Positions 6,639 to 33,458 of a stretch of 64,000 bases of DNA are shown here, one piece after another. Positions within the stretch are counted from its first letter, which is position 1; every line of letters starts with the position of its first letter. A program made the translations under genes and the position numbers. The notes beneath the pieces are model-generated. The model did not search any database, was not told the origin of the DNA, and saw only the letters and a program-made list of their open reading frames with translations. This stretch comes from a bacterium (GTDB lineage Bacteria; Desulfobacterota; DSWW01): assembly GCA_028277985.1 (NCBI GenBank), contig JANQFG010000265.1, forward strand, positions 6,832-70,831. Direction: 5' to 3'.

Positions 6639-6662
6639 AGAACCGGGAAGGGGATCGTTCAG

Positions 6663-10934: not shown

Positions 10935-12515
10935 TCACAAGAAATGCCCTGCTACCCCCGCGATGACTCCATACAGAATCATCGGCAGTATCGTTCTCTT
11001 CAGAATGAATCCTTCCTGATTCGCAATGCCCAGAATAGAGCAAACGGCAACAATATTGTTTATGCATACCATGTTTCCCAGGGCCCCGCCAACGGACTGC
11101 AGGGTCAGGACGACGATTCGATCGAGTGCAAGGTCTGTCGCAATGGAGTACTGGATGCCGCCGAAGGTCAGATTCGAAATCGTCGCCGAGCCTGAAAAGA
11201 AAGAGCCAAGCGCTCCGAGGAAAGAGGCAACGTATACCCAGGAGTTGCCCGCCACACCAGCGAAGCCGTGCCCGATAGTGAGCACCATGGAGCGATCTCC
11301 ACCTACCATCAGGAGCTTCACCATCACCAATGCGCCGAGTAGGGCGATGATTGTGTAGACCATGCGCGTATAGGATTCTGATGTGATGCGTATCATGACA
11401 GGTGTTTTCAGTCGGTACACAACGAAGGACAGCCCCGAGACAAGAAAGAAAGGGATGAATGCGGGAACATAGAGGGCTTGGAACACCCAGGTGCTTTGTG
11501 CCTGAAAGATATCTTTGAGAACCAGAACAAGTGAGAGGCTCGCGGTGAAGTTCCCCAGGGAGCCCAAGCCGATTTCCATGGCGGGCGTAGCGTCATTGAG
11601 AAAGCTTTTGATCCCCAGTTGTTCGATCCGCGTAACGAGAAGCACCAGGACGGTTGCCCACAGGGGAAAGAGTGCCCTGATCAACTGACCATAAGAGGTG
11701 CGTGCCGCGCTCTCGCGTCTTTCGCTGCTCGAGGAGAGCCCGATCCCTGAGCGTGCCAGAGCAACTGAAATCAGAAAGCCGATCATTCCCGCAAGAAGCG
11801 CAGGGAACTCGTAGTTGTAACGCGCCACGAGCACATAAGGGGCGACACAGCTCAGGATAGAGAGGTAAACGAATACCAGATTCGACCGGAGCTCTCGCCA
11901 ATCGACCACAGCCAACAAGGCAATGACCGGGATAACGAGCGCAGCAAAGGCATGGACCACGGCAGAGTTGAAACCGATCCGCAACATCTCGGCTTCGCTG
12001 AGACCCAGCTGCCCCATCCCAAACCAGGTTGGTGTGCCGACGGCACCGAATGAGACCGGGACAGAGTTCATGATGAGTGCGAGCACCGCTACCCGTACGG
12101 CGGGGAAACCCAAACCGACCAGGATCGGCGCGGCAAGAGCCGCAGGCGTTCCAAAACCGCTTGCTCCTTCAATCATGAAGGAGAAGGCCCAGCCAATGAT
12201 CATGAGCTGTGCAATCCGATTGCTGCTGACACCATTGAGCCAGTCCCGGACAATCGTCATGGCCCCGGAATGTTCCATGGTCTTGAACATGAAGATGGCG
12301 CCCCAGATGATAAGAATGGGCGTCAAGGCGGTGAGCAGTCCGTTCAGAACCGTTGCGTTGATCAGGTTGGCATTATCGCCGAAGTACACGAGCTTTATGA
12401 GGTAAACAAGCACTGCAACGGCTGGAAGCGCGATGTGGGACGGTGTTCCGTTCTTCTTGGTCATCAAGAAGATGAGAATGGCAATCGGAGCAATGGAGAC
12501 GAGAAGGTCGGCCAT
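10935..12515 (-). CDS. L-lactate/glycolate permease family (LctP) transporter
   Basis: 526-aa polytopic membrane protein whose N-terminus and length are typical of the LctP family. Confidence 0.7.
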   Translation of the reverse strand: MADLLVSIAPIAILIFLMTKKNGTPSHIALPAVAVLVYLIKLVYFGDNANLINATVLNGLLTALTPILIIWGAIFMFKTMEHSGAMTIVRDWLNGVSSNRIAQLMIIGWAFSFMIEGASGFGTPAALAAPILVGLGFPAVRVAVLALIMNSVPVSFGAVGTPTWFGMGQLGLSEAEMLRIGFNSAVVHAFAALVIPVIALLAVVDWRELRSNLVFVYLSILSCVAPYVLVARYNYEFPALLAGMIGFLISVALARSGIGLSSSSERRESAARTSYGQLIRALFPLWATVLVLLVTRIEQLGIKSFLNDATPAMEIGLGSLGNFTASLSLVLVLKDIFQAQSTWVFQALYVPAFIPFFLVSGLSFVVYRLKTPVMIRITSESYTRMVYTIIALLGALVMVKLLMVGGDRSMVLTIGHGFAGVAGNSWVYVASFLGALGSFFSGSATISNLTFGGIQYSIATDLALDRIVVLTLQSVGGALGNMVCINNIVAVCSILGIANQEGFILKRTILPMILYGVIAGVAGHFL

Positions 12516-12824
12516 GACGGTGATTTATGCCTCAGCTTTCGGAAGAGCGGCGTAGATCCTGTTCAACGTCTGCCCTGATGGCTGTCTAGAGATGGGACGA
12601 GCAGAGAGGCAACTAAGACCTTGGATGAAGCTGTTGGCCGAGAAGTTCCAATGGTTTCCCATGTCCGGCTTCCTCGGCGCAACCGTCCTGAGTGTGCTCG
12701 GATGAAATCTCGGGCTTTTCGTCAGCAGGTTGAATTTGCAGGGATATCAACTATCATCGTAGAGGCTTGCATCGTGGAGTGCTCGTCCCAGGCCGTGAGG
12801 TTGGGCAAACAGGAGGTATCGGTC

Positions 12825-14348: not shown

Positions 14349-15554
14349 CTAATCGGCTGCCGGGATCCTGTAGCGGCGAAAGACGAGCCGGTGCAGCATG
14401 TTCTTGAGCACCGTGTCTCCCATGCCCTGGACCTCGAATTCGTTCCGAAGGAAGTCAGCGGTGTCCCGGATGGCCTTTGCCTTGTCGGCGAGGCTCAATC
14501 CATGAAGCATGCCGGGTTGCTTTGCCATGGATGAAGCGCTCGAAGCCTTCATCCGCAGAGGATTGAACTGGTCAAGGGCTGTTACCATTTCCGGTTTGAC
14601 GAGTTGCTTGTAGAGAGTCAGGGCATCGACACCCTTGTGGACAGCCTGGATCACGGCCTCCCCGGCATAGCCGCCGCTTGCGAGCGCACAGGAGATTCCT
14701 TCTCCGCCCTGGTGCATGAGCCCCATGGCATCCCCTACCATCAGCACGTTGCCACGGCCCGGGAAGAAGCGGTTCAGAGGGGTCATCGTGTTGGAGGGGC
14801 AGGCCTCCATGGCCAGTTCGCGTTTGATCTGGAGGCCGAGGTTCTTCTTGAGGAAATCGACAAAGAGCTGGAACCGGCTCTGGAAGTTGTGGCCCTTTAC
14901 CAGGGCCAGGCCGATGATGATCTGGTCGTCCTTCAGGTTCATCCACGGGAAAGGTCCCATGTTCCGGGTGAGGAACCAGTGCAGATAACGGTCGTCGGCG
15001 TCGATCTTCCCCTCGAAGTACTTCTGACATGCGTAGGCCCATGGCAGGCCCTGGTAGACATCTGGGGCAAAGGTGCGGATCACGCGGGAGTTGCCTCCGT
15101 CGGCACCGATGAGGTATCGGGCCCTGACCTTCGTGATCTTTTCGTTCCGTTTGAGATGGGCGACGACTTCCGCGCCGTCGTGTTCCAGGTGTAGAAACCT
15201 CGTACGGTCCCGAAGCACCGCCCCGGATGACTTGGCCAGGAAGTGATCGAACTTGTCTCTCCAGACGTAGAGGTTGTAGCAATCCACGTCCGTGTAGACC
15301 ATACCGACCGTTGGGAAGTAGAAACCCATTCCCCTCGAGATGTTCGGCCTGCTGAAGGCCTTCTCCGGTATGGGTCCGAAGTTCTCGAACACGTAATTCT
15401 GTGAAACGTTCGAGATAATCCCGGAACAGGCTTTTCTCCTGGGCAGTTTGTGCTTGTCGATCAAGAGGGTCTTCAAACCCCCGTCTACGCACTTCCTTGC
15501 TGTGGCCGAACCTCCGGGTCCTGCGCCTACAACGAGAACGTCGAACTTCTGCAT
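14349..15554 (-). CDS. Geranylgeranyl-reductase-family FAD-dependent oxidoreductase
   Basis: Contains MQKFDVLVVGAGPGGSATARKC...LLIDKHKLPRRKACSGIIS and ...VLMVGDAMGLMHQGGEGI. Confidence 0.75.
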   Translation of the reverse strand: MQKFDVLVVGAGPGGSATARKCVDGGLKTLLIDKHKLPRRKACSGIISNVSQNYVFENFGPIPEKAFSRPNISRGMGFYFPTVGMVYTDVDCYNLYVWRDKFDHFLAKSSGAVLRDRTRFLHLEHDGAEVVAHLKRNEKITKVRARYLIGADGGNSRVIRTFAPDVYQGLPWAYACQKYFEGKIDADDRYLHWFLTRNMGPFPWMNLKDDQIIIGLALVKGHNFQSRFQLFVDFLKKNLGLQIKRELAMEACPSNTMTPLNRFFPGRGNVLMVGDAMGLMHQGGEGISCALASGGYAGEAVIQAVHKGVDALTLYKQLVKPEMVTALDQFNPLRMKASSASSMAKQPGMLHGLSLADKAKAIRDTADFLRNEFEVQGMGDTVLKNMLHRLVFRRYRIPAAD

Positions 15555-15621: not shown

Positions 15622-15646
15622 AATCGAATAATACATAATTCGAAAT
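15622..15646. promoter_or_regulatory. AT-rich direct repeat TAATCGAAT-N7-TAATTCGAAA (TAWTCGNAA boxes 16 bp apart)
   Basis: Read directly in the divergent intergenic region. Related boxes lie at 56011-56035, 59540-59564 and 1620-1641. Confidence 0.4.
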
Positions 15647-15735
15647 AAAAGATATGGATAGCAATGTCGGCCGCTTATGTCAAGGCATTTGTCGCACAGG
15701 GAGGCCGAAAGGAGGCTCCTGAGGCGCGTGACAAA

Positions 15736-15778
15736 AGGAAATTTCCTGTTGACAATTTTGCTACGAAATTGGTATTTT
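15736..15778 (+). promoter_or_regulatory. Sigma70-like promoter of the CrtI-GltD operon with abutting 12-bp perfect palindrome
   Basis: AGGAAATTTCCT (15736-15747) sits next to TTGACA (15749-15754), followed by a 17/18-nt spacer containing TACGAAATTGG and then TATTTT (15773-15778). An imperfect inverted repeat GATATTAG/CCAATATC lies at 15781-15804. Confidence 0.55.
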
Positions 15779-15844
15779 TTGATATTAGAAATTTTACCAA
15801 TATCGAAAGACAGGCGAGAACGCACCCATGCGGAGAGGGTGAGC

Positions 15845-18745
15845 GTGCGCATTCTGGAAGATGCGACCCTGCGGGATCGCTATCAAGTGGTCGTGGTCGG
15901 TTCGGGCATCGGGGGCCTGACGGCCGGGGCCCTGCTGGCCAAGAGGGGGCTCGAACCGCTCGTGATCGAGCAGCACTATCTGCCGGGTGGTGCCTGCACC
16001 ACCATGCGGCGCAGGGGCATAACCTTCGACGTGGGCGTGGGCATGATGTTCGGTTTCGGGGAAAGAGGGTTCAACCCCCATCGTTTCGTGATGAACGAGA
16101 TCGAGGAAGAAATCGATGTGATCCCCCACGAGTGCCTGTACCAGATGAAGATCATGGGGCGGGACCTCACCTTCTGGCGGGATTTCGAACGGTACTTTTC
16201 GGAGTTGGCGGCCCTGTTCCCCCAACAGGAGAAGGAGTTGCGGGATCTGTACGACTACTTCTACGAGCTGTACGAAGAGATGATCCTCAAGAATGAAGTG
16301 GTCGTGCCCCCAACGGAAATACCGGTGAGGGAGAGCCTCAAGAGCTTCCTGAAGAACCCCCTGGGCATGGTTCGGATCATCCCCCTCATGTTCAAGAACA
16401 CGGAAAGCCTCGTCAAGAGATTCATCACGGATCCGGACGTCATCGCCTTCTTCAACATGCTCACCTGTACCTACTGCTACTGCGACGCCAGAGAGACCCC
16501 GGCGATGCTTTCCGGCGCCCTGTTCTGCGACAACCACGAGGGGGGAGCCTTCTATCCGGCCGGTTCGCCCCAGATGCTCTCGAACAAGCTGGAGAGGGCC
16601 ATTGAGAAGCACGGCGGCCGGGTGCTCTATCGCCGCCTGGTGGATGAGATCCTGATCGAGAGCGGAGAAGCCTACGGGGTGAGGCTCGACGACGGCACCG
16701 AGATCCTGGCCGACCGGGTAGTGGCGAACGCCACGATCTGGAATCTGTACGGAAAACTGGTGAAGCCGCGACACATCGAACCGGAACGAATGGCCTGGGC
16801 TCAGGGCTTCGTACCGACCTTCGGAAGCCTTGTCCTGTATCTGGGAGTGGATGCGGAAGCGGTCCCGGAGGGGACTCCGCCGATCCTGATGTTCGTCGAA
16901 GATATGTACAATATCACGGGGAATGACATTACCGTCTACATATCCTCGGTCGACGATCCAACCTTGTGCGCACCCGGCATGCATTCGATCACCGTTGTCC
17001 AGCCCTCCATGGTCGAATGGCCTCGCCCCTCTGACCCGGAATACGCGTCAGAGAAGTATCAACGCTTGAAACGTGAAGAGGCCGACAAGCTGCTCGATCA
17101 GGTGGAAGAGCATTTTCCGGCTCTACGGAAGCATATCCGGGTCATGGAGGTAGGCACGCCGACCACCATAGAGCGCTTCACCCTCAAGAACTGGGGAGCG
17201 GTCGGTGGGCCGAAGATGATGATGGGGCAGGACATGATGAAACGCCTCCATGCCCGCAGCGACTGGAAGAACCTCTACGTTTGTGGTGATTCCACGGTCA
17301 TGGGCATCGGAATCCCTGCTACGACCGTGTCGGGCGTGGGTGCCGCCAACAGGGTCCTGCGTGACTTGGGGCAAGAGGAATATGCTCCCCGCTCTTTTGT
17401 CCGGGAGTATATCCACTATGTGAAAGGACAACCCTGGACCCCGGCGCCGGACGCCTCGGCACCGATCACAGAGGATTCGGCCGGACGAATTGCCCGGGAA
17501 TGCCAGCATTGCGAAGAGCCTTCCTGCCGGAACGCCTGCCCGGCAGGCATCGAAACGAGCTATTTCGCGCGCCGTGTGGAAGCCGGCAACTTCGAGGGCG
17601 CGGCCCGTGCCCTGAGAGAGGTGAATCCCTTTTCCGAGGTCTGCGGTGTCATCTGTCCGGCCGAACGATTCTGTGAAAAGAGCTGCAGTCGTCTGGATTT
17701 CGATGAGAAGCCGGTAAGGATCAGAGATCTGCACGGCTGGGTCTGCAGTCACGTTTCAAGATCACGCGGATGGGACCGCTGGATTCCGGCACAGAAGAAC
17801 CTCAAGGTGGCGGTCGTCGGTGCCGGTCCCGCCGGCCTCACCTGTGCCCATTATCTGGCCCGGCTCGGCTATCGGGTGGATATGATGGACAAGGCATCGA
17901 AGCCCGGGGGGATGCTGAACCATGCGATCCCCGTCTTCCGACTGGGGGACGACGTCGTGGCGAGGGAAGTCGAGGGATTGACCATTCCCGGAATGAGGTT
18001 TCATGGCGGCAGGGCTCTGGGAGAAGACTTCACCGTTGAAGAACTGGAATCGGACTATCGTGCAGTGTTCCTGGCGCCGGGGTTGTGGTCCGGGCAGCAA
18101 CTGGACATACGGGGTGCAGACAAAGTCAATACGACGGATGCCCTGGATTTTCTGAAGAACTGTCGGACATCCGGAACAACAACGGTCGGGAAGAGGGTGC
18201 TGGTCATCGGGGGAGGCAGTGTGGCATCGGACGCGGCTCTGTCGGCCGGTCGTGTCGGCGCTGCAGAGGTTGCGTTGGTCTGCCTCGAGACCCGGGAAGA
18301 CATGCCCTGTCTCGAGAGTGAAGTGGATGAGATGAACCGCAGGGGAATCCGGATCGAAGACGGATGGGGCCCCCGGGAAATCCTCTCCGGATCGGAGATG
18401 TCCTTTGTCCGTTGCACTTCCGTGTTCGATGATCACGGGGGATTCGATCCCGTGTTCGACGAGTCCGAGGCGATGGAAATGGAATTCGACCAGGTGATTC
18501 TCGCGGTGGGTCAGCGCGTAGAGCCCGGCCTGGCCGGGTACCTGGAAGAGGCCTTTGGCCGGGGCGATCGGCTGGAGGTGGATCGGGAGTCCATGCAGGT
18601 GGTCGGCCGAAGCCGGGTATTTGCCGGTGGAGACATCGTTCGTGGCGCGGGCACCGTGGTGGAGGCGGTGGGGGACGGCAGGCGCGCGGCCATGGGAATT
18701 GACAGGCGGCTGGGCGGTAGCGAGACGCTACAGGTCACGGAGTGA
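15845..18745 (+). CDS. CrtI-like flavoenzyme fused to GltD-like 2x[4Fe-4S]/FAD/NAD(P)H module (paralog 1, 966 aa)
   Basis: GTG start at 15845 aligns exactly with the paralog N-termini (V/M-RILEDATLRDRYQVVVVGSGIGGLTAGALLAKRG), with SD GGAGAGGG upstream. The CrtI part ends at GDSTVMGIGIPATTVSGVGAAN. It is followed by CQHCEEPSCRNACPAG, NPFSEVCGVICPAERFCEKSC, VVGAGPAGLTCAHYL, VIGGGSVASDAA and VFAGGDIVRGAGTVVEAVGDGRRAA. Confidence 0.85.
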   Translation: MRILEDATLRDRYQVVVVGSGIGGLTAGALLAKRGLEPLVIEQHYLPGGACTTMRRRGITFDVGVGMMFGFGERGFNPHRFVMNEIEEEIDVIPHECLYQMKIMGRDLTFWRDFERYFSELAALFPQQEKELRDLYDYFYELYEEMILKNEVVVPPTEIPVRESLKSFLKNPLGMVRIIPLMFKNTESLVKRFITDPDVIAFFNMLTCTYCYCDARETPAMLSGALFCDNHEGGAFYPAGSPQMLSNKLERAIEKHGGRVLYRRLVDEILIESGEAYGVRLDDGTEILADRVVANATIWNLYGKLVKPRHIEPERMAWAQGFVPTFGSLVLYLGVDAEAVPEGTPPILMFVEDMYNITGNDITVYISSVDDPTLCAPGMHSITVVQPSMVEWPRPSDPEYASEKYQRLKREEADKLLDQVEEHFPALRKHIRVMEVGTPTTIERFTLKNWGAVGGPKMMMGQDMMKRLHARSDWKNLYVCGDSTVMGIGIPATTVSGVGAANRVLRDLGQEEYAPRSFVREYIHYVKGQPWTPAPDASAPITEDSAGRIARECQHCEEPSCRNACPAGIETSYFARRVEAGNFEGAARALREVNPFSEVCGVICPAERFCEKSCSRLDFDEKPVRIRDLHGWVCSHVSRSRGWDRWIPAQKNLKVAVVGAGPAGLTCAHYLARLGYRVDMMDKASKPGGMLNHAIPVFRLGDDVVAREVEGLTIPGMRFHGGRALGEDFTVEELESDYRAVFLAPGLWSGQQLDIRGADKVNTTDALDFLKNCRTSGTTTVGKRVLVIGGGSVASDAALSAGRVGAAEVALVCLETREDMPCLESEVDEMNRRGIRIEDGWGPREILSGSEMSFVRCTSVFDDHGGFDPVFDESEAMEMEFDQVILAVGQRVEPGLAGYLEEAFGRGDRLEVDRESMQVVGRSRVFAGGDIVRGAGTVVEAVGDGRRAAMGIDRRLGGSETLQVTE

Positions 18746-18806
18746 GGGGAGGGATGAGGGGGCAGGCCCTGGTACGCCATCTCCCATTGTCCTCGTCCCC
18801 GATTTC

Positions 18807-18826
18807 GGGCACAGGCACGGGCACGG
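18807..18826. repeat. Hexamer micro-repeat (GGCACR)3
   Basis: GGGCACAGGCACGGGCACGG lies 23 nt upstream of start 18849. The same family occurs at 37831, 38736 and, inverted, at 46676. Confidence 0.6.
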
Positions 18827-18848
18827 ACAAAAGAGAAAAGAGGAGCCC

Positions 18849-21737
18849 ATGAAACTACTGAATGATGCAGTGATCAGGGATCGATATGACGTTGTGGTCG
18901 TGGGAGCCGGGATTGGCGGGCTGACCGCTGCCGCTCTGCTGGCGAAGAGGGGACAGAGGGTTCTCGTTCTCGAGCAACACTATATCCCCGGGGGGTGCTG
19001 CACGGCGATCCGGCGCAACGATGTGGCCATCGACGTGGGTGCGGCCCTGCTGTTCGGATGGAACGACGAGACGAGCGCGCACCCCTTCGTGATGAACGAG
19101 CTCGAAGAAGAAATCGACCTGATTCCACACGATTCGACATACCGCATTCACCTCGGGAAGAAGACGGTCACGTTCTGGCGGGACCTGGACCGGTATCTCG
19201 ACGAATTGACGGCGGTGTTTCCGAACCAGGACAGGGAGATTCGTGCCCTCTACCGGGAGTGCAGCGAGTTGTACGAGATCATGATGGGAATGGCCAAGTT
19301 CCCCGTGCCCCCCACGGAGATACCCCCCCTGGACGGGCTCAAGATGGCGCTCAAGGATCCCATCGGGATGATGAAGATGCAGAAGCTCATGTCCATGTCC
19401 GGTGAGGATCTGCTCAAGAAGCACATCACCGATCCGAAAACGACCGATTTCTTCGACTTTCTCGTTGCCTCGTGCACGACCTGTACCGTCAAGGAGAGCC
19501 CTGCGAGCATGGTGGTCGGTATCTTCATGAACATCCATCTCGGTGGGACCTGCTACCCTTCGGGTTCCCCCCAGATGTTTCCGAACAAGCTCGAAAGGGC
19601 CCTGGAGAGATTCGGCGGCCAGATCGTTTACCGGAAGATGGTGGACGAGATCCTGATCTGGCAGGGGAAGGCCTACGGGGTTCGCTTGTCCGACGGAACC
19701 GAGATCCTGGCGGACACCGTGGTTTCCAATGCGGACGTCTGGACCCTCTACGGCACGTTGGTCAACCCGAAGCACATCAAGCCCGACCGGATGGAGTGGG
19801 CGCAGGGGTTCGATCCGACCCCGGCCATCCTGGTGCTCTATATAAGTGTGAAGGAGGAAGCCATTCCGGGAGGAACGCATCCGATCGAATTCTATGTACG
19901 AAGTCTCCACGATGTGCAGGGGGATAACTTCATGGTCTATATCCCCTCCCTCGAAGACCCGACCATTGCTCCGACGGGTACCCATTCCATCACGATCATG
20001 GGATCGAGCAAGATCGATTGGCCCCGTCCTCAGGATCGGTCCTATCGGTCGGACGAGTACAACCGGATGAAAGAAGAGGAGGCGGAGAGGGTCCTTGATC
20101 TGCTCCAGGCGAACTATCTGCCGAACCTGAAGGAAAACATCATCAGCATGGACGTCGGAACCGCATCGACCATCGAACGGTACACACGGAAGTACAAGGG
20201 GAACATCGGTGGGCCGAAAGTCACGACGGAACAGTTCTTCTTCAACCGGCTGAAGGCCCGCAGCGAATGGAAGAATCTCTACTGTGTGGGCGACTCGACC
20301 GCCATGGGCGAAGGGGTTGTTTCCGTGACCATGTCGGGTGTGGGGGCGGCCAACCAGATCTTGAAGGACAAGGGGCTCTTGCCGTACCGGCCTCGTGCGT
20401 TCTCCAAGCATTTCGTCAACATGATCGAGGGCAAGCCCTGGGTCGCGAGCCCGGATCCGGCAGATCCGATTACCGAAGAGGCGGCCATAAGAATCGGCAG
20501 GGACTGCCAGCACTGCGAAGATCCTGAATGTCAGAATGCGTGTCCGGCAGACATCGAGACGAGCCTTTTCGCCCGGCGCATAGAATCCGGGAATTTCGTG
20601 GGTGCCGCGAGGGTGTTGCGGGAGGTGAACCCCCTTTCGGAAGTCTGTGGATACATCTGTCCGGCAGAGCAATTCTGCGAAAAGAAATGCAGCCGGCTGG
20701 ACTTCGACGACCGACCCGTGCGAATCCGCGAGCTCCATGGGTGGGTCTGCGGTCACGCGTCCCGATTCGAGGGGTGGGATCGCTCCGTTCCAGGCCTTAA
20801 CGGCCATAAGGTGGCCGTTGTGGGCGCCGGACCGGCAGGCCTCACCTGTGCCCATTATCTGGCACGACTTGGTTACCGGGTGGACATCATGGAGAAAGCG
20901 AAGGCGTCCGGAGGGATGCTGACACATGCGGTTCCGGCCTTCCGTCTGCCGGACGAGGTCGTGGAGCGCGAGATAGAGGGTTTGAGCCTTCCGGGGATGG
21001 CATTCCAGTACGCAAAGGCCCTTGGCAAGGACTTCAGGATTGCGGAACTGGAGGCGGATTATGATGCCGTCTTCCTGGCACCCGGGTTGTGGTCGGGCCG
21101 AACGCTCGACATCCCCGGCCTGGAGAAGGCGAAGATGACGGACGGGCTGAGGTTCCTCCAATCCTGCCGGGGAAAGAAGAAGGGGAAAGTCGGAAAGAAT
21201 GTGGTGGTTGTAGGAGGGGGGAGCGTGGCGTCGGATGCAGCTGTTTCCGCCGTTGAATGCGGAGCAGAGAAGGTGACACTGGTGTGCCTCGAAGGTCCGG
21301 AGGAGATGCCGTGCCTCAAGAGTGAAATCGTTGAAATGAAGAATCACGGGATCGAGGTGCAGAACGGGTGGGGCCCGAAAGAAGTCACATCCGAATCGAA
21401 GATTTCCTTTGTATGCTGTACCTCGGTGTTCGATGAGACCGGAGCCTTTCGCCCTGTTTTCGATGAATCGAAAACCATGGAGTTGGATTTCGATCAGCTG
21501 ATTCTGGCCGTGGGGCAGCGAACGGAACCGGCTCTTGCCAAATACTTGAAGAAGGAATTCGGGCGGGATGACGGGCTGGATGTGGATCCGCAGACCATGG
21601 AGGTGATCGGCCGAAGCGGGGTATTTGCCGGCGGAGACATCGTGCGTGGAGCCGGAACCGTCGTGGAGGCAGTAGGGGACGGACGTCGTGCCGCCATGGC
21701 CATCGACGAGCAGGTGAGGGATGACCCGGGGTTCTGA
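18849..21737 (+). CDS. CrtI-like::GltD-like fusion flavoprotein (paralog 2, 962 aa)
   Basis: ATG 18849 (SD AAGAGGAG). Reads MKLLNDAVIRDRYDVVVVGAGIGGLTAAALLAKRG and has the same motif series as paralog 1, including CQHCEDPECQNACPAD and NPLSEVCGYICPAEQFCEKKC. The listed ORF start 18555 is an upstream open-frame extension. Confidence 0.85.
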   Translation: MKLLNDAVIRDRYDVVVVGAGIGGLTAAALLAKRGQRVLVLEQHYIPGGCCTAIRRNDVAIDVGAALLFGWNDETSAHPFVMNELEEEIDLIPHDSTYRIHLGKKTVTFWRDLDRYLDELTAVFPNQDREIRALYRECSELYEIMMGMAKFPVPPTEIPPLDGLKMALKDPIGMMKMQKLMSMSGEDLLKKHITDPKTTDFFDFLVASCTTCTVKESPASMVVGIFMNIHLGGTCYPSGSPQMFPNKLERALERFGGQIVYRKMVDEILIWQGKAYGVRLSDGTEILADTVVSNADVWTLYGTLVNPKHIKPDRMEWAQGFDPTPAILVLYISVKEEAIPGGTHPIEFYVRSLHDVQGDNFMVYIPSLEDPTIAPTGTHSITIMGSSKIDWPRPQDRSYRSDEYNRMKEEEAERVLDLLQANYLPNLKENIISMDVGTASTIERYTRKYKGNIGGPKVTTEQFFFNRLKARSEWKNLYCVGDSTAMGEGVVSVTMSGVGAANQILKDKGLLPYRPRAFSKHFVNMIEGKPWVASPDPADPITEEAAIRIGRDCQHCEDPECQNACPADIETSLFARRIESGNFVGAARVLREVNPLSEVCGYICPAEQFCEKKCSRLDFDDRPVRIRELHGWVCGHASRFEGWDRSVPGLNGHKVAVVGAGPAGLTCAHYLARLGYRVDIMEKAKASGGMLTHAVPAFRLPDEVVEREIEGLSLPGMAFQYAKALGKDFRIAELEADYDAVFLAPGLWSGRTLDIPGLEKAKMTDGLRFLQSCRGKKKGKVGKNVVVVGGGSVASDAAVSAVECGAEKVTLVCLEGPEEMPCLKSEIVEMKNHGIEVQNGWGPKEVTSESKISFVCCTSVFDETGAFRPVFDESKTMELDFDQLILAVGQRTEPALAKYLKKEFGRDDGLDVDPQTMEVIGRSGVFAGGDIVRGAGTVVEAVGDGRRAAMAIDEQVRDDPGF

Positions 21738-21773
21738 GACGAGGACGAGGATGAGGACGACGACGAGGACGAT
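21738..21773. repeat. Codon-periodic (GAC/GAG/GAT)12 tract immediately after the TGA stop
   Basis: GACGAGGACGAGGATGAGGACGACGACGAGGACGAT is in frame with the preceding gene and would read DEDEDEDDDEDD. Confidence 0.6.
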
Positions 21774-21796
21774 AGCTTGGGAAAGGAAAGCAACAA

Positions 21797-24691
21797 GTGC
21801 AGCTACTTGACAATGCAGTGATCAGAGATCGTTACGATGTGATTGTTGTAGGAGCCGGTATCGGGGGGCTGACTGCCGCCGCCCTGTTGGCCAAGAAGGG
21901 GATTCGCGTTCTGGTCATCGAGCAGCATTACATGCCGGGTGGTGTCTGCGGCGGTATCCGGCGCCGGGGCGTCACGATGGACGTGGGAGCGACGGTCCTC
22001 TATGGGTTCGGGGAAAGAGGATACAACACCCACCGGTTCGTGATGAACGAGCTGGAAGAAGACATCGACATGATTCCCCGGGAAGCGATCTATCACATGC
22101 ACGTCGAGGACTACAGCATCATCTTCTGGCTGGAGTTCGAGCCCTTTTTCAAGCAGCTGGTGGAGCTGTTTCCTGACCAGGAGAAGGAACTCAGGCATTT
22201 CTATGACTATCTTTTCGACCTCTATGAAGGGACGATCCTGAAGAACGAAACGATTGTTCCGCCCACAGAGATGTCGCCGAAAGACAACCTGAAGCTCTTT
22301 GTGAAGAACCCCTTGGGCACGATCAAGATGGTTTCGATGATGTCCAAGAGTGCGGAAAGCGTCTTCGAGAAATTCTTCACAGACCGAAAGGTCATAGACT
22401 TCTTCGACATGCTGACCCGCACTTTTTCTTACGTGGATGCGGATGAGTGCCCTGCGATTCTCTCTGTCACCATGTTTGCAGACAACCACATCGGCGGCGC
22501 CTATTATCCGTCAGGCTCTCCGCAGATGCTTTCCAACAAACTGGAAAGGGCGATCGAACGGCATGGAGGCCAGATCCTTTACCGCCACCTGGTGGATGAG
22601 ATTCTCATCACGGACGGAAAGGCCCATGGTGTTCGGCTGGCAGACGGCACCGAGATCCATGCCGACCGGGTCGTCTCGGATGCGGCGATCTGGAACCTCT
22701 ATGGAAAACTGGTGCGACCCGAGCACATCGAACCGAAACGCATGAAATGGGCGCAGGACTTCATTCCGTGTCACAGCAACGTGATCCTTTACATCGGTGC
22801 GGACGCAAAGGGGATCCCGGAGGACGCTCGCCCGATGGAAATCATCATCGAGGATCCGAACAAGGTGGACGGCCACGGGATCACCGTATACATCCCCACC
22901 CTCGTGGACCCGACCGTGAGCCCTCCGGATACCTGCTCGATAACGATCACTGCTGTTTCCACCCTGGAATGGCCCCGTCCGGGTGACCCTGGTTACCAAT
23001 CTGAAGCATACCGGCAGATGAAGGAGGAGGAGGCAGAGAAGATCCTGGACAGGCTGAAACCTCGGTTTCCGAGCTTGAGAAAACACATCAACACAATGGA
23101 TATCGCTACGCCGAGCACCATAGAGCGATACACCCTCAAGAGCTGGGGGAATGTGGGTGGCCCGAAACAGATGCTCGGCCAGGACATGATGAAACGGCTC
23201 AAGGCTCGGAGCGATTGGAAGAACCTGTACCTCGTGGGGGACTCCACGGTCATGGGGTTGGGGGTCCTGCCGGCCACAACGTCCGGGGTCGGTGCAGCCA
23301 ACATGATCTTGAAGGATGTGGGGCTCAAAGAGTACGCACCTCGCACGTTTGCGCGACAGTTCGTCCATTTCACGGAAGGAAAGCCCTGGACCCCCGAGCC
23401 GGACGATTCGGAGCCGATCACGGAAGACTCGGCCATGCGTATGGCCCGTGCCTGTGATCACTGCGAAGAAGCGGGCTGTATCGGGGCCTGTCCGGCAGGG
23501 ATCGATCTCGTGGGGTTTCACCGGCGGGTCGAGTCCGGCAATTTCGCCGGGGCGGCCCGGTCCATGCGGGATATGAACCCGCTTGCAGAGATCTGCGGCC
23601 ACGTCTGCCCGGCGGAGCGGTTCTGTCAAAAGCAATGCAACCGCCTGGACTATACCGACAAGCCGGTGCGTATAGCGGATCTTCATGGATGGGTGTGCGG
23701 GCATGTCCCGCAGGACGAGGGCTGGGAACAGTATGTCCTCCCCTTGAACGGTCGGCGGATTGCTGTTGTGGGATCGGGCCCGGCCGGCTTGACCTGCGCC
23801 CACTACCTGGGCCGTCTTGGATGCAGGGTGGATGTGCTGGAGAAAGCGGAGAAGCCCGGCGGGATGCTGGCAATGGCCCTTCCTCCGTTCCGCATTTCCG
23901 ATGACGTGCTTGCGCGGGAAATCGATGGGATGACCCTTTCAACCATGCGTTTCGAGTACGGAAAGACACTGGGCAAGGACTATTCGGTCTCCGATCTGGA
24001 GGATGACTACGATGCCGTCTTCCTGGCCCCGGGATTGTGGTCCGGCCGGGAGGTGGAGGTGCCGGGTGCGGACAAGGCGGAAACGATCGACGCCCTCGGT
24101 CTCCTCTGTTCCTACCGGTGCGAGGGTCGGGTGGAAATGGGGAAGAGGGCTGTCATCATCGGAGGGGGGAGCGTGGCTGCGGACGCAGCCCTTGCAGCAA
24201 AAGACTCGGGAGCCGAGAAGGTTTCGCTGGTCTGTCTGGAGGGGGAGGGCGAGATGCCGGCGCTTTCCGGAGAGCTGTCCGAGTTGAGGAGATTGGGAGT
24301 CGAGATTCTTCACGGATGGGGTCCCCGGGCCTTTCTTGACTCGAAGAAAATCTCTTTCAAGGCGTGTGAGCGCGTTTTTGACGAACAGAACCGGTTTCAG
24401 CCGACCTACGATGAATCGAGATCGATGGAGATGGACTTTGACACCTTGATCTGGGCGGTCGGGCAGGAGGTGGAGCCATCGCTGGCGGATTACCTGAAGA
24501 GCGAGTTCGGATGCGTTGGCTTGATCCCGGTTGAACAGGACACGATGCAGGTCACGGGCCGCCCCGGCGTCTTTGCCGGTGGCGACATCGTTCGAGGAGC
24601 AGGGACGGTCGTGGAGGCTGTCCGCGACGGTCGTCTCGCAGCAATGGGTATCGAGGCCTGGCTGACCGAACAGGTCAAAGATCAAAGGTGA
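21797..24691 (+). CDS. CrtI-like::GltD-like fusion flavoprotein (paralog 3, 964 aa)
   Basis: GTG start. Reads (M)QLLDNAVIRDRYDVIVVGAGIGGLTAAALLAKKG, with CDHCEEAGCIGACPAG, NPLAEICGHVCPAERFCQKQC, VVGSGPAGLTCAHYL and VFAGGDIVRGAGTVVEAVRDGRLAA. Confidence 0.85.
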   Translation: MQLLDNAVIRDRYDVIVVGAGIGGLTAAALLAKKGIRVLVIEQHYMPGGVCGGIRRRGVTMDVGATVLYGFGERGYNTHRFVMNELEEDIDMIPREAIYHMHVEDYSIIFWLEFEPFFKQLVELFPDQEKELRHFYDYLFDLYEGTILKNETIVPPTEMSPKDNLKLFVKNPLGTIKMVSMMSKSAESVFEKFFTDRKVIDFFDMLTRTFSYVDADECPAILSVTMFADNHIGGAYYPSGSPQMLSNKLERAIERHGGQILYRHLVDEILITDGKAHGVRLADGTEIHADRVVSDAAIWNLYGKLVRPEHIEPKRMKWAQDFIPCHSNVILYIGADAKGIPEDARPMEIIIEDPNKVDGHGITVYIPTLVDPTVSPPDTCSITITAVSTLEWPRPGDPGYQSEAYRQMKEEEAEKILDRLKPRFPSLRKHINTMDIATPSTIERYTLKSWGNVGGPKQMLGQDMMKRLKARSDWKNLYLVGDSTVMGLGVLPATTSGVGAANMILKDVGLKEYAPRTFARQFVHFTEGKPWTPEPDDSEPITEDSAMRMARACDHCEEAGCIGACPAGIDLVGFHRRVESGNFAGAARSMRDMNPLAEICGHVCPAERFCQKQCNRLDYTDKPVRIADLHGWVCGHVPQDEGWEQYVLPLNGRRIAVVGSGPAGLTCAHYLGRLGCRVDVLEKAEKPGGMLAMALPPFRISDDVLAREIDGMTLSTMRFEYGKTLGKDYSVSDLEDDYDAVFLAPGLWSGREVEVPGADKAETIDALGLLCSYRCEGRVEMGKRAVIIGGGSVAADAALAAKDSGAEKVSLVCLEGEGEMPALSGELSELRRLGVEILHGWGPRAFLDSKKISFKACERVFDEQNRFQPTYDESRSMEMDFDTLIWAVGQEVEPSLADYLKSEFGCVGLIPVEQDTMQVTGRPGVFAGGDIVRGAGTVVEAVRDGRLAAMGIEAWLTEQVKDQR

Positions 24692-24776
24692 AAGATCAAT
24701 AAAGACCCCGGGACGGAGTGGTCACCCGTGGTCCTTCTGTTTCTTGTCACCTCGACATGGCAAAGGGGGGAGGCAT

Positions 24777-26423: not shown

Positions 26424-27935
26424 ATGGGAACGACGGACTACGACGCCATCGTGATCGGGGCAGGGTGCGGCGGCATTACCTGCGCGTCCATTCTGGCCAA
26501 AAGGGGAATGAAAACCCTTCTGCTCGAGCAGAACGACATCATCGGGGGGTGCTGCTCCACCTTTGAAGCGGAGGGGTTCCACTTTGATACGGGAGCGTCC
26601 ATCGTGGAGATGCCGGAAGGCATTGACGTCATCTTCGAGCGCCTTGGGAGGAAGCGGCAGGATTACATCGATCTTCGGCCTTGCGACCCGATGTACTCGT
26701 TCCGGACGCCGGAGGGCGAGTATCTGGATATCCCCACCGATTTCGATGCCATGTACGAGCTGATCAAATCTTACTCGCCCGAGGACGCGGAAGGGTGGCG
26801 TGACTATTGCGCATATTGGAAGGTGAGCATAGAGGAAGGGATGAAGACTTACCTTCACAGCGACATGCAGTCCTGGAAGAGCATGCTCAAGATGTCCATG
26901 CGCTCGCCCAAGATGCTCAAGTACATGTCCAACTTCTACCTGACCTATGAGATCCTCATAAAGAAATGGTTCAAACATCAGACGACCCTGGACTCCCTGG
27001 GATTCCAGTCGTTCTGGATCGGGTTGCCGCCGCGGCTCTGCCCGGGTCTGTATGCGGGGATCACATACTCGGAGCACGAGGGGATCTACTACCCCATGGG
27101 CGGGATGATCTCCGTACCCCAGGGGATCCTGACCGTGGGGCAGGAGTTCGGGTTGGAGGTGCGGCTCGATACCGAGGTCACCAAGGTGATCGTTCGGAAC
27201 GGGAAGGCCCGAGGAGTGGAGCTCAAGGACGGGACCAAGCTGGGTGCCAAGGTGGTGGTCTCCAATATCAACGCGAAGGTTCTGTACTTGAAGTTGATCG
27301 GAGAAGATCATCTCCCCGCACGGGTCAAGAAAGGGGTTGAGAGCTACAAGCTCTCGTTGTGCATGCCGATGATCTACCTCGGGATCAAGGGAGAGGTGCC
27401 CCTGCGAGCCCATCACAACCTGCAACTGGGCCGCTTTCAGACCATGAACGAGATGTGGGAGAAGTACTTCCTGGCCGGACGCTTCCCGGAAGACCCGGTC
27501 AGTCTTCTGGCCTGGCCTACGGAAACGGATCCGTCCCTGGCGCCGGAGGGCCACCATGTCGTCAATGTGGGGGCCATGGGGTCCTATCACCTGGACCACG
27601 GGACCTGGGACGAGCGCGGGGAAGAATACACCGACCTGATTCTGGGGTACGTGGACCAGACCCTCTGGCCGGGAATCCGTGATCAGATTGTCTACCAGAA
27701 CCTATCGACCCCCCTGGATTTTGAACGGAGGCTCTTGAGTCCTGAGGGCGCCGTGTACGCCCTTCAGAATGACATCCCCTCGACCATGATCTTTCGGCCC
27801 TCCAACCGGTCCAAGAGCATAGAGGGGCTCTATCTGACCGGCGCCTCCACACATCCGGGCGGAGGGGTCGTGATGACGATCGCCAGTGGCGGCATTTCCG
27901 CGGACCTGATCGAGAGGGACCTGCCCCATTTATAA
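26424..27935 (+). CDS. CrtI/phytoene-desaturase-family oxidoreductase
   Basis: Reads MGTTDYDAIVIGAGCGGITCASILAKRGMKTLLLEQNDIIGGCCSTFE, with C-terminal LYLTGASTHPGGGVVMTIASG. Confidence 0.8.
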   Translation: MGTTDYDAIVIGAGCGGITCASILAKRGMKTLLLEQNDIIGGCCSTFEAEGFHFDTGASIVEMPEGIDVIFERLGRKRQDYIDLRPCDPMYSFRTPEGEYLDIPTDFDAMYELIKSYSPEDAEGWRDYCAYWKVSIEEGMKTYLHSDMQSWKSMLKMSMRSPKMLKYMSNFYLTYEILIKKWFKHQTTLDSLGFQSFWIGLPPRLCPGLYAGITYSEHEGIYYPMGGMISVPQGILTVGQEFGLEVRLDTEVTKVIVRNGKARGVELKDGTKLGAKVVVSNINAKVLYLKLIGEDHLPARVKKGVESYKLSLCMPMIYLGIKGEVPLRAHHNLQLGRFQTMNEMWEKYFLAGRFPEDPVSLLAWPTETDPSLAPEGHHVVNVGAMGSYHLDHGTWDERGEEYTDLILGYVDQTLWPGIRDQIVYQNLSTPLDFERRLLSPEGAVYALQNDIPSTMIFRPSNRSKSIEGLYLTGASTHPGGGVVMTIASGGISADLIERDLPHL

Positions 27936-28193: not shown

Positions 28194-28286
28194 TGGAAAA
28201 CGGTAGTAACAAGCGTATGCCTGGAGGGCTTGCTGGGTTTGTTTTATTATTAAATAGTTACAGACTAAATGTAAGGAGTAGCTTGA

Positions 28287-28802
28287 ATGAAAGGAAGCGA
28301 TCGAGTGAAGGTGATTCAAGACTATTTCAACCTGATGGGAAAGACCTACATCATCCTCCTGAGCAGCCTCGATGAATTCCTCGGGTCTCCTCTCTCCACG
28401 AACGAGAAGGTGGTCCTGCAGATCCTTGATGAGGAACCGATCTCGATCAAGGAGGTCTCTCTCAGGACTGGGCTGGCCTTGTCCACCCTCACGAATGTCT
28501 TCGACAAGATGGAGGACAAGCGTCTGGTGAAGAGGCGGCACTCTCGCACGGATCGCCGCATGGTGAAGATCGAGCTGGACGTGGCCGGCCGTCGCCTTCA
28601 GTCCAGGTTCAACGATCTGATCAAGCAGATCTCTTCCACCTGGCTGGAAAGAGTTCCGGAGGAAGATGGCCGGAATTTCACTTCCGCCCTGGAGAAGACG
28701 GGGTTCTTCCTCTCTGTGGACAGTGAAGATTTTCAGGATGGATTGAGCTCTCTGATCGAGCCCCTGCAGATCACGCTGGCAAAGCAGTTCAAGAAAAGGT
28801 GA
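28287..28802 (+). CDS. MarR-family transcriptional regulator
   Basis: Winged-helix region: TNEKVVLQILDEEPISIKEVSLRTGLALSTLTNVFDKMEDKRLVKRRHSRTDRRMVKIELD. Confidence 0.85.
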   Translation: MKGSDRVKVIQDYFNLMGKTYIILLSSLDEFLGSPLSTNEKVVLQILDEEPISIKEVSLRTGLALSTLTNVFDKMEDKRLVKRRHSRTDRRMVKIELDVAGRRLQSRFNDLIKQISSTWLERVPEEDGRNFTSALEKTGFFLSVDSEDFQDGLSSLIEPLQITLAKQFKKR

Positions 28803-28856
28803 TGAAGGTTCTCTTAGTGAGAAGAAGTCTATTGTGAACAGCACCTTTGGAGAGAA

Positions 28857-30917: not shown

Positions 30918-31006
30918 GCCCAAGGGATTGCTGCGAGGCTTTTCCCCGGAGTACATATCCTTGCTTCTCGGTATCAATCGCTTCTACGCACACGGGAGGC
31001 TACGGC

Positions 31007-32083
31007 ATGTCCAGAGTGATCGTGAGGAATTCGGACTTCGAGAGCCTGCGGGGAGCGATCGATCGTATCTTTCAAGACCTGGAGGTGGATCTGAAGGGAA
31101 AGAGCGTCCTGATCAAGCCGAATTTCGGCGCGGCCGTTGGGCCGGAGAAATCGGCGCTGACAGACGCTAGGGTGGTCAAGGCGGTGCTGGACGCCTGCCT
31201 CGAGCAGACCGGTGAGGTCATCATCGGGGACAACCCGGGAAATCTTGACACCAGAGCCATGCACACGATCGGGATGTCCGGGATTCTGGAACTGGCGAGC
31301 GACTTCTATTGCAACATCAGCCAGGGGGGGCAGTTTGTCGACATCGGCTCCGAGATCATCCCCAGGGTCTTCCTGTCCAGTCAGGTCACGGATGTGGACT
31401 ATGTGATCAACGTGCCGAAGATGAAGACCCACGTGCTCTGCGGACTATCCTGTTGTATCAAGAACCTCTACGGGTACGTGGTAGGCGCGCAGAAGGCGAG
31501 ATACCACCTGGAGTCGGGGAGCCTGAAGCGTCTCACCCAGTTGTGGCTCGACCTCTACAAATACCGAGCACCGAACCTGAACATCGTGGATGCGATCGTG
31601 GCCATGGAGGGTGGCGGCCCCACACACGGCAAACCGAGGCCCGTCGGAAAGATCGTGGCCGGAACGAACGGGTTTGAAGTGGATGTGGTGCTCACGACCA
31701 TGATGGGGTGGGACCCGAGGACGATGAAGATGCTGGAAATGGCCTGCGAACAGGGGTTGGGTGAGATCGATGTGGAGAGAATCGAGGTAGAGGGTGACTT
31801 CGAGATCCTCCCCGAGTTCGAGAAACCGCCTACCTTTGCAGCCATCGATCCGAAGTTCAACCCATACGAGGAAATCGTTCGTATTCGACCGAGCCTGGAC
31901 GAAGAGAAATGCGTCCTCTGCAGGCTCTGCGGGGACGAATCCTGTCCCGCAGAGGCGATATCCTTTGAAGAGTATCCAATCATCGATCCGGAGAAATGCA
32001 TCTCCTGCTACTGTTGTGTCGAATTCTGTCCCGAGGGGGCCCTGTTCGTCGAGTATGACAAGGAAATATTCGAGATTGCATAG
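31007..32083 (+). CDS. DUF362 domain protein with C-terminal 2x[4Fe-4S] ferredoxin domain
   Basis: Contains VLIKPNFG...PKMKTHVLCGLSCCIKNLYG...IVDAIVAMEGGGP, then CVLCRLCGDESCP and CISCYCCVEFCP. Confidence 0.7.
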   Translation: MSRVIVRNSDFESLRGAIDRIFQDLEVDLKGKSVLIKPNFGAAVGPEKSALTDARVVKAVLDACLEQTGEVIIGDNPGNLDTRAMHTIGMSGILELASDFYCNISQGGQFVDIGSEIIPRVFLSSQVTDVDYVINVPKMKTHVLCGLSCCIKNLYGYVVGAQKARYHLESGSLKRLTQLWLDLYKYRAPNLNIVDAIVAMEGGGPTHGKPRPVGKIVAGTNGFEVDVVLTTMMGWDPRTMKMLEMACEQGLGEIDVERIEVEGDFEILPEFEKPPTFAAIDPKFNPYEEIVRIRPSLDEEKCVLCRLCGDESCPAEAISFEEYPIIDPEKCISCYCCVEFCPEGALFVEYDKEIFEIA

Positions 32084-32100
32084 TGTGAGGGATGTTCGTC

Positions 32101-33417: not shown

Positions 33418-33458
33418 TCCGTTGGAACGAGGTTTCGAGAAAGAGAGAGGGGAGCGAG

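Follow-up and report, generated by a model that had tools for sequence, protein, structure and literature searches.

The GltD-type module, in the contexts in which it has been characterised (glutamate synthase, dihydropyrimidine dehydrogenase (DPD) and Nfn), links NAD(P)H via FAD and [4Fe-4S] clusters to another redox center. CrtISO is a reduced-flavin-dependent, non-redox enzyme, and its animal relative RetSat saturates one C=C bond. The limonene dehydrogenase CtmAB, a member of COG1233, is genetically dependent on the ferredoxin CtmE and is accompanied by the NADH:ferredoxin reductase CtmF (PMC4109377). IsrA, the putative isoprene reductase of Acetobacterium wieringae, contains a GltD/NfnB-like core that is proposed to hydrogenate a diene (PMC10134865). 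Here we describe three consecutive genes, named A, B and C, on a 64-kb stretch of bacterial DNA with a G+C content of about 58 % (contig JANQFG010000265.1; the whole stretch is called the window), the products of which join a CrtISO-like domain to a GltD-type module. Each of these proteins is very probably a self-contained oxidoreductase with two flavins and two [4Fe-4S] clusters, and by analogy with known systems the chances appear even that they are self-sufficient NADH-dependent saturases of isoprenoid or polyene C=C bonds.

Architecture of the three tandem flavoproteins

The three genes and their modules are arranged as follows:
Gene A: 15845-18745, + strand, 966 aa, GTG start; CrtISO-like FAD domain 15845-17371, Fer4_20 domain 17459-17752, GltD/NfnB-type FAD and NAD(H) module 17804-18679
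Gene B: 18849-21737, + strand, 962 aa, ATG start; the same three modules at 18849-20375, 20463-20756 and 20808-21683
Gene C: 21797-24691, + strand, 964 aa, GTG start; the same three modules at 21797-23323, 23411-23704 and 23756-24631

All three proteins score far above the Pfam gathering scores for NAD_binding_8 and Amino_oxidase (residues 1-505), Fer4_20 (539-636) and Pyr_redox_2 (654-945), which bears out the two-module architecture proposed in an earlier model reading of the sequence (the original prediction). The N half belongs to the amine-oxidase/CrtI superfamily (PF01593, 71-80 bits over residues 22-505, cutoff 19.8; PF13450, 86-96 bits), and the C half contains the domains of a GltD-type electron-input module (PF14691, 74-76 bits; PF07992, 95-142 bits). 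The two expected Cys clusters are present as eight cysteines in each of A, B and C (C553/556/561/565 and C600/604/610/614), for which a motif search gives the spacings C-x2-C-x4-C-x3-C and C-x3-C-x5-C-x3-C, which we take to be those of the glutamate synthase small subunit. In an alignment of 72 long forms, that is, family members with all three modules, seven of the eight show no variation and C600 is conserved to at least 90 %; the N-terminal FAD motif (G19/G21/G24) is invariant, and conservation extends to the two flavin GxGxxG motifs and to GGGSVA at the nicotinamide site. Each protein thus has two intact dinucleotide-binding flavin sites and a third Rossmann motif for the pyridine nucleotide. 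The proteins end about 20 residues after Pyr_redox_2, with no Pfam match to a DPD-type FMN barrel or two-cluster C-terminal domain.

The AlphaFold2 model of A, built from the 72-sequence alignment, has a mean pLDDT of 91.3 and a pTM of 0.91, with the linker (residues 510-540) at about 90, and predicts that the two modules are packed into one defined compact body and are not arranged as beads on a string. No solved structure with this architecture was found in the PDB up to April 2026, where every sequence match of whole A is confined to one of its halves. The C half matches NfnABC (9n5u_A), Nfn-ABC (9bov_A), StnABC (8oh5_C), NfnB (4ylf_B), NfnI (5jca_L), GltD (6s6s_G and 2vdc_G) and DPD (1gt8), with E values of 1e-42 to 1e-62 in the whole-protein search and 1e-63 with the C half alone, and the N half matches CrtI (4dgk) and gamma-carotene desaturase (4rep) at E about 1e-14. 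A Foldseek search with the whole model gave a best query TM-score of 0.41, the C half alone being matched, with target TM-scores of 0.78-0.83 for GltD, NfnB, NfnI and DPD (0.83 to GltD 6s6s_E).

The architecture is also absent from the curated family libraries, and literature searches returned no paper on it, only the analogues CtmAB, the steroid delta-24 desaturase (delta-24-SD) and IsrA. The opinion that no characterised enzyme has such a layout thus holds for the PDB, by sequence and by fold, and for the literature found. Modules and wiring logic are each known, but as combined in A, B and C they are undescribed in the PDB, the curated libraries and the searched literature.

The best curated families of the C half are GltD-like (PRK12771, 320-338 bits, below cutoff), and for the glutamate synthase small subunit as a whole (TIGR01317/TIGR01318, PRK12771 and others) the scores of 143-338 bits stay under the cutoffs of 447-516. 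No GltB-like large-subunit gene is present among the annotated open reading frames (ORFs) of the window. The best C-half matches in the PDB are bifurcating enzymes (9n5u, 9bov, 8oh5, 4ylf, 5jca), as would suit an NfnB-like FAD that divides the two electrons of NAD(P)H, one going downhill to the CrtISO-like flavin and the C=C bond and the other uphill via the clusters to ferredoxin, and so conserves energy; the reduction of a C=C bond would be exergonic enough to pay for this, and the hosts are energy-limited syntrophs. Such bifurcation is nevertheless highly improbable. GltD and DPD, which do not bifurcate, fit just as well (target TM-score 0.83 for GltD). No NfnA-like [2Fe-2S]/FAD partner or second branch is found in the protein or the annotated window, although one could be encoded elsewhere, and in sequence order the protein has no clusters but those between its two flavins, which points to one linear wire.

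Following strand beta-2 in the second Rossmann fold, the five best PDB relatives read ...v-Y-R-R-x-x-x-e-M-P-A, and a residue-by-residue alignment places L-V-C-L-E-T-R-E-D-M-P of A at the same position. Among the aligned long forms L814 and E815 do not vary, C813 is conserved to at least 90 %, and the NADPH-type Y-R-R site of GltD, NfnB and DPD is missing from A, B, C and the other 69. Rossmann folds as a rule select NADH with an acidic residue that ends beta-2 and use basic residues to hold the 2'-phosphate of NADPH. Because C-L-E, with its acidic Glu, replaces the basic Y-R-R, the donor is likelier to be NADH than NADPH. The NAD(P)H of the original prediction is thereby narrowed to a probable NADH. 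In the cluster domain, A has His630 where the alignment shows Glu in NfnB and Gln in DPD, the residues that serve as the non-Cys cluster ligand.

The coordinates and lengths first given for the three same-strand genes are exact, and the genes are the obvious paralogs they were said to be, with pairwise identities of 56-59 % for protein, 63-65 % for nucleotides and 43-46 % for third codon positions, the last being near saturation. All of the shared motifs reported for them are present, with two one-residue deviations (HPFVMNE in B and the ...ACPAGID end in C). A, B and C are ancient paralogs and not assembly duplicates: at 63-65 % nucleotide identity the copies cannot collapse on read mapping, an outcome that the original prediction had named as one that would undo it. 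Assembly duplication was excluded on this divergence and on the recurrence of the arrangement in independent assemblies. The wider explanation by an assembly artefact or decaying duplicates has a practically negligible probability, since the frames are intact and the ligand cysteines and glycine-rich motifs are kept in all three genes.

The N termini of A, B and C align residue for residue (VRILEDATLRDRY / MKLLNDAVIRDRY / MQLLDNAVIRDRY), and a purine-rich Shine-Dalgarno-like stretch is located 5' of each start. The ORF of gene A can be extended to ATG 15677, and the public database copy P0001 has 1022 aa. A promoter-like site is found within this extension:
15749-15778, + strand: TTGACA-18 nt-TATTTT with a TG, 10/12 consensus matches

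The site lies 67 nt 5' of the GTG of gene A, in an AT-rich divergent intergenic region of 290 bp, and is a positional hint only, as the whole region shows no enrichment over shuffles. The start at 15845 was kept because orthologs of A have 956-968 aa and because the promoter-like element falls inside the extension; the start at ATG 15677, which probably represents an over-extension, was dropped on the alignment with paralogs and orthologs and on this element. If GTG 15845 is the true start, as is likely, P0001 is annotated 56 residues too long. Mechanically called ORFs over-extend several genes of the window (15677-15844, 12621-12824, 24744-24776 and 32772-33458), the likely true starts being GTG 15845, ATG 12825, ATG 24777 and ATG 33459, each with a good Shine-Dalgarno-like stretch 5' of it. 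The AT-rich divergent promoter region also contains two inverted repeats, TCGAAT-n8-ATTCGA (15624-15643) and GATATT-n12-AATATC (15781-15804), the latter directly 3' of the -10-like hexamer. Either could serve as an operator for a MarR or TetR regulator of the cluster, although with arms of 6 bp both could be due to chance.

Placement of the N-terminal domain

The best NCBIfam match of the N half is the CrtISO/CrtH equivalog TIGR02730 (A 303.7, B 285.8 and C 303.9 bits over residues 13-509), at about half of the cutoff of 586.9 and thus short of membership. The CrtD family follows with 198-213 bits, below its curated cutoff, and the CrtI family TIGR02734 with 164.6, 159.9 and 169.1 bits for A, B and C, where 238.1 would be needed. 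By these profile scores the N half is CrtISO/CrtH-like rather than CrtI-like and belongs to no curated family. The original prediction of a CrtI-type domain was right about the amine-oxidase/CrtI fold, which Pfam recognises, but not about the nearest family.

An exhaustive HMMER search with residues 1-530 of A against 1.84 billion cluster representatives returned a tight top group above about 340 bits, which consists of long forms and many proteins of 620-660 aa, followed by a sharp fall to stand-alone proteins of about 500 aa and about 30-34 % identity. The short forms (about 630 aa) contain the CrtISO-like domain and a C-terminal Fer4_20 domain without the reductase module; most of them retain both Cys groups, which are degenerate in a few. 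They form a very large family found in Spirochaetia, Coriobacteriia, Anaerolineae, Coprothermobacterota and others. A second long family (P0181 and P0182, 962 and 980 aa) has the same three modules with an N domain of 29 % identity.

A rough neighbour-joining tree, computed without support values, groups the long, short and second long forms in one clade, apart from the stand-alone proteins and from the other CrtI-like genes of the window. P0181 and P0182 branch outside both long and short forms in this tree. The pattern hints that the full fusion may be ancestral and that the short forms may have lost the reductase module. As far as the family can be traced by sequence, the constant partner of the N domain is the two-cluster domain, and the NADH/FAD module is an add-on of the long forms. 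The invariable linkage of the clade to Fer4_20, in all three kinds of protein, argues that the iron-sulfur wire is integral to the catalytic domain.

The nearest stand-alone relatives include Chlorobium and Chloracidobacterium proteins annotated as prolycopene isomerase or phytoene-desaturase family and are, by this similarity, CrtH-type enzymes of carotenoid-making phototrophs. Together with the best score to TIGR02730, they make a carotenoid-type binding pocket in the N domain plausible. The same two observations favor a redox-neutral cis-trans (or positional) polyene isomerase, in which the iron-sulfur/FAD/NADH module would only keep the catalytic FAD in the reduced state that plant CrtISO also requires, carotenoid isomerase being the top curated family (286-304 bits). 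This function is unlikely, however, since scores at half of the equivalog cutoff leave room for divergence, a stoichiometric two-cluster reductase of 430 residues is heavy equipment for an occasional re-reduction of the flavin, and three paralogs with GGR, OYE and β-oxidation-type neighbours (described below) suit net reduction and catabolism better.

At three loci (L010 8001-11678, L013 8001-11803 and L011 4643-10357) a short form is grouped into a trio with a GT2/GT21 glycosyltransferase and a small membrane acyltransferase. In two Coriobacteriia this acyltransferase resembles PlsY (PF02660), in a Spirochaetia metagenome-assembled genome (MAG) it resembles CrtO (PF18927), and the sizes and order of the trio recall crtP-crtQ-crtO of glycosylated, acylated carotenoids. 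The short-form loci L012 and L014 are without the trio.

Distribution and gene cluster

A word-indexed protein search returned 617 proteins at E <= 1e-10. The best 120 of these are at least 52 % identical, have 948-1108 aa with the exception of one truncated protein, and share the same Pfam set; their names are at most 'FAD-dependent oxidoreductase', 'carotene isomerase' or 'glutamate synthase beta subunit-like'. By these matches the architecture is that of a large unannotated family (at least 120 full-length relatives) conserved in many anaerobes. Genome matches reach 85 % in a Syntrophobacteria MAG and 80 % in a Thermodesulfobacteriota MAG, and by these nearest matches the window itself most probably derives from an organism of the Syntrophobacteria type. 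In a metagenome scan the search patterns fell in the GltD half, so that 75 of 80 loci were ordinary GltD-like genes and L015-L019 were the useful ones.

A full-length copy of 955 aa with 47-50 % identity is present in the Promethearchaeia (Asgard) MAG ABR06 (L002 1687-4554), where a second copy also begins at a contig end (L004 10001-10492). The L002 contig carries gelsolin and proteasome genes, which back its archaeal origin and argue against bacterial contamination, and the distribution suggests gene transfer between sediment Thermodesulfobacteriota and Asgard archaea. With a sugar kinase, proteasome and gelsolin genes as neighbours, this locus is uninformative as to function. The complete 'Deltaproteobacteria' genome CP070770 has two copies; single copies occur at loci L006, L009 and L002.

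A, B and C fall into separate orthogroups, with identities of up to 85, 89 and 86 % in other assemblies. Related loci are organized as follows:
L095 (JGI): SCP2-thiolase-ChsH2 ... SDR-GGR on the - strand, then A (68 %), B (69 %), C (68 %) and the CrtI-like gene
L007/L008 (ENA): A (71 %), B (70 %), a third copy, the CrtI-like gene (68 %) and the 503-aa CrtI-family gene (82 %)
L003: thiolase, ChsH2, SDR, GGR, then A and B
L019: B, then C
L096 (502-kb contig of a close relative): GGR, B (82 %), C (80 %), no A, CrtI-like (87 %), CrtI (92 %)
L096 onward: MarR (92 %), OYE/FadH-like (89 %), DUF362 (87 %) and two amine-oxidase-fold genes

The A-B order is kept at 70-81 % identity (L003, L007), and the downstream block of the window appears in the same order in L096 at 78-92 % identity. 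Judged by these loci, the triplication is old and the gene order is conserved, with a copy number of two or three within a conserved cluster. A fusion gene or the ortholog of the amine-oxidase-fold gene ao_32092 is split into two or three frames in L003 (6093-8941), L017 (4-2881) and L096 (20817-22126), and in the L003 fusion the N half is 81 % and the C half 57 % identical to A. The split frames could be sequencing frameshifts, assembly chimeras of paralogs or the result of recombination between tandem copies.

Identity among A, B and C is lowest at N-domain residues 161-240 and 321-440, outside the best-conserved stretches of this domain, and highest in the FAD, iron-sulfur and reductase parts. 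The two variable segments may form the substrate pocket, and the pattern fits a divergence of the paralogs in substrate handling. The three proteins could instead be subunits of one complex and not three enzymes of separate specificity. DPD passes electrons between subunits, and the A-B-C order and tight spacing (59-103 nt) are conserved. The related COG1233 enzymes CtmAB and delta-24-SD are heterodimers (PMC11061730). A hetero-oligomer is still distinctly unlikely, given that L096 keeps only B and C, that L006, L009 and L002 have single copies, and that every copy keeps all cofactor motifs.

Around the fusion genes, the window contains the following features:
4920-7088, + strand: ChsH2/DUF35-like protein, SCPx-type thiolase and SCP2 protein, recurring beside the GGR/fusion cassette in L003 and L095
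12825-14273: CrtI-like gene upstream of the cassette
14349-15554, - strand: geranylgeranyl-reductase-family flavoprotein (GGR), divergent from A, TIGR02032 128 bits
24777-26333, + strand: stand-alone CrtI-like flavoprotein, likely start ATG 24777 with GGGGGGAGG 5' of it (the ORF opens at TTG 24744)
26424-27935, + strand: phytoene-desaturase-family protein of 503 aa, TIGR02734 338.6 bits (above the cutoff of 238.1)
28219-28238, + strand: terminator-like hairpin and T run after the fifth gene, a consensus match only
28287-28802, + strand: MarR, first gene of the conserved downstream block (28287-34808)
28857-30917, + strand: OYE/FadH/BaiCD-like Fe-S flavoenzyme, same block
31007-32083, + strand: DUF362+Fer4 protein, same block
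32092-33417 and 33459-34808, + strand: two amine-oxidase-fold proteins, same block
53070-55028, - strand: second OYE/FadH-like gene

The short intergenic gaps from A onward (103, 59, 85 and 90 nt) and the hairpin after the fifth gene suggest an operon A-B-C-CrtI-like-CrtI, divergent from the GGR-like gene. The divergent GGR/fusion arrangement is conserved in L003, L095 and L096, and the CrtI-like gene at 24777 comes after the fusions in every syntenic locus that reaches further (L007, L008, L095 and L096). The protein encoded at 26424-27935 is the best conserved member of the cassette, with 82-92 % identity in L007 and L096.

All annotated large ORFs (at least 120 aa) from 15845 to 46559, about 31 kb, are on the + strand, and this stretch, which resembles one catabolic supercluster, also holds a ferredoxin (4Fe-4S), a tungsten-type aldehyde:ferredoxin oxidoreductase (AOR), a SnoaL-like protein, two SDRs, an RND efflux pump and an acyl-CoA dehydrogenase. 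Over its 64 kb the window contains nine genes of the amine-oxidase-fold or NAD_binding_8 type, one GGR-like and two OYE/FadH-like genes. Such a gene set would be expected of a system that acts on many C=C bonds of a hydrophobic substrate, probably a methyl-branched one, and then feeds it into β-oxidation. An Rfam scan of the window found no riboswitch or other RNA that would hint at a ligand.

Three dispersed proteins of about 1000 aa, at 1972-4917 (+ strand), 47846-50809 (- strand) and 56325-59339 (+ strand), are paralogs with 64-70 % identity to each other; each carries two FAD_binding_4 domains and FAD-oxidase_C, and an ortholog of 83 % identity lies beside the cassette in L096. Between the thiolase set and the cassette are a lactate-permease-family transporter (10935-12515, - strand) and a 4Fe-4S dicluster protein of 406 aa (7104-8324, - strand), the latter with an 85 % identical ortholog beside the GGR gene in L096.

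Proposed reaction and comparison with known systems

In the reaction that we propose, NADH, probably rather than NADPH, would reduce the FAD of the C-terminal GltD/NfnB-type module, and electrons would pass one at a time via the two Fer4_20 [4Fe-4S] clusters to the N-terminal CrtISO/RetSat-like FAD. This flavin would then hydrogenate a C=C bond of a long hydrophobic substrate of the isoprenoid/polyene class. The enzyme would be designed like DPD and 2,4-dienoyl-CoA reductase, except for a catalytic domain of the CrtI fold, and would need neither O2 nor a quinone. The linear path from NADH through FAD and two [4Fe-4S] clusters to the second FAD is the simplest one, since a CrtI-fold flavin is fused to a GltD-type module in a predicted rigid body. 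The potential of NAD(H) is -320 mV and those of alkene/alkane couples are near or above 0 mV, some 300 mV higher; NAD(H) is unable to take electrons from such couples, so that a nicotinamide-linked module implies reduction.

The neighbouring genes, of a kind to work on C=C bonds or branched acyl chains, are the GGR, four CrtI-like genes, two OYE/FadH genes, the SCPx thiolase with DUF35 and SCP2 proteins, the acyl-CoA dehydrogenase, AOR, SDRs and RND efflux. The three paralogs would be sub-functionalised for different double-bond positions or related substrates and would cooperate with the GGR-like, other CrtI-like and OYE/FadH-like enzymes and the branched-chain (SCPx-type) thiolase system. 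The precedents of CtmAB (PMC4109377) and IsrA (PMC10134865) make such a linear saturase more plausible.

It is also conceivable that electrons flow in the opposite direction, from an O2-independent desaturase or allylic-methyl hydroxylase out via the clusters and FAD to NAD+ or ferredoxin. CtmAB and delta-24-SD carry out such anaerobic oxidations, CtmAB being genetically tied to a ferredoxin and a reductase (PMC4109377, PMC11061730), and the AOR, SDRs and acyl-CoA dehydrogenase of the cluster could process an alcohol or aldehyde product. Oxidative chemistry is very unlikely all the same. A motif search found the covalent-flavin motif G-F-[LR]-x-[NS]-[TL]-H-A (PMC11061730) in none of A, B and C, which at the apparently corresponding place, located by eye and not by alignment, read G-[IV]-[TA]-x-D-V-G with no His. 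They thus lack the mark of the CtmAB/delta-24-SD class, and covalent flavinylation of the CtmAB type was rejected for them. Moreover, transfer from such couples to NAD+ would be strongly endergonic, and no high-potential acceptor is obvious in the hosts, which are strict anaerobes (Syntrophobacteria-type, Asgard).

Several points weigh against an NADH-dependent saturase. The nearest named relatives of the N domain, CrtISO and CrtH, are redox-neutral isomerases and not saturases, GltD-type modules are reversible in some enzymes (Nfn), and the preference for NADH is read from one motif. In the cluster, gene A is missing from the close relative L096, the GGR-like gene scores below the TIGR02032 cutoff (128 vs 158.8 bits), and no recognisable isoprenoid-specific marker is present. 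The short forms have no nicotinamide module and sit in other gene contexts (GT2 and small acyltransferase), which puts a single reaction for the whole family in doubt, and long and short forms may not share one.

It is rather unlikely that long and short forms together constitute the missing enzymology by which anaerobic microbes hydrogenate carotenoids and other isoprenoid polyenes. If they did, detrital polyenes would serve Thermodesulfobacteriota and Asgard archaea of the sediment as cytoplasmic electron sinks or be readied for β-oxidation, and saturated biomarkers such as lycopane and carotanes would be accounted for; in a more radical variant, the NfnB-like flavin would bifurcate and couple C=C reduction to the reduction of ferredoxin. 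The saturases proposed here would define a widespread class of O2- and quinone-independent CrtI-fold enzymes of strict anaerobes, hard-wired to an iron-sulfur chain, and would offer candidate genes for the saturation or degradation of carotenoids, polyprenols and isoprenoids in anoxic sediments, a process known mainly from its geochemical products. As a system with a soluble donor, the family would show how flavoenzymes of the CrtISO/RetSat type are supplied with electrons. The conserved array of two or three copies with two variable N-domain segments would be a natural experiment in regio- or substrate specificity, and NADH-driven polyene saturases, if real, would be useful biocatalysts.

The C half of A, B and C resembles GltD, NfnB/NfnABC and the GltD-like domains of Stn in its identity (28-34 %), fold (target TM-score about 0.8) and Cys spacing, but the proteins have no GltB or NfnA partner in the window, score below the GltD-family cutoffs and carry C-L-E in place of Y-R-R. 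IsrA similarly combines a GltD/NfnB-like core with extra domains and is proposed to hydrogenate isoprenoid C=C bonds in an anaerobe (PMC10134865); it differs in its N-terminal domain of unknown fold, extra clusters and Ni-chaperone genes, and has no CrtI-fold domain. CtmAB with CtmE and CtmF, and delta-24-SD, are anaerobic COG1233 isoprenoid enzymes and a split counterpart of the fusion (PMC4109377, PMC11061730). Unlike A, B and C, however, they bind flavin covalently via the His motif and perform oxidative chemistry, and CtmAB uses a separately encoded [2Fe-2S] ferredoxin and an unrelated reductase.

CrtISO/CrtH is the top curated family of residues 13-509, with stand-alone relatives about 30-34 % identical, yet CrtISO, CrtH and RetSat have no iron-sulfur or reductase domain, whereas the N domains of A, B and C belong to a clade of their own that is always fused to Fer4_20. 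FadH and its relatives (BaiCD and bilirubin reductase), of which type two genes are present in the same window (28857-30917 and, on the - strand, 53070-55028), share the self-sufficient path from NAD(P)H through FAD, [4Fe-4S] and a flavin to a C=C bond, but have an OYE-type FMN barrel and a single cluster, with no homology to the N half.

In DPD (the mammalian enzyme and bacterial PreT/PreA), a GltD-type module likewise feeds iron-sulfur clusters and a second flavin reduces a C=C bond, the whole chain being placed on one polypeptide of about 1000 residues; the C half of A matches DPD at E 1e-42. DPD carries its catalytic domain at the C terminus, as an FMN TIM barrel accompanied by two extra clusters, and acts on a pyrimidine, while the catalytic domain of A, B and C is N-terminal, FAD-binding and of the CrtI fold, without an extra cluster domain and with C-L-E for Y-R-R in the reductase part. 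With hundreds of homologs, and with GltD-type modules fused to many partners, the architecture is less singular than the original prediction supposed.

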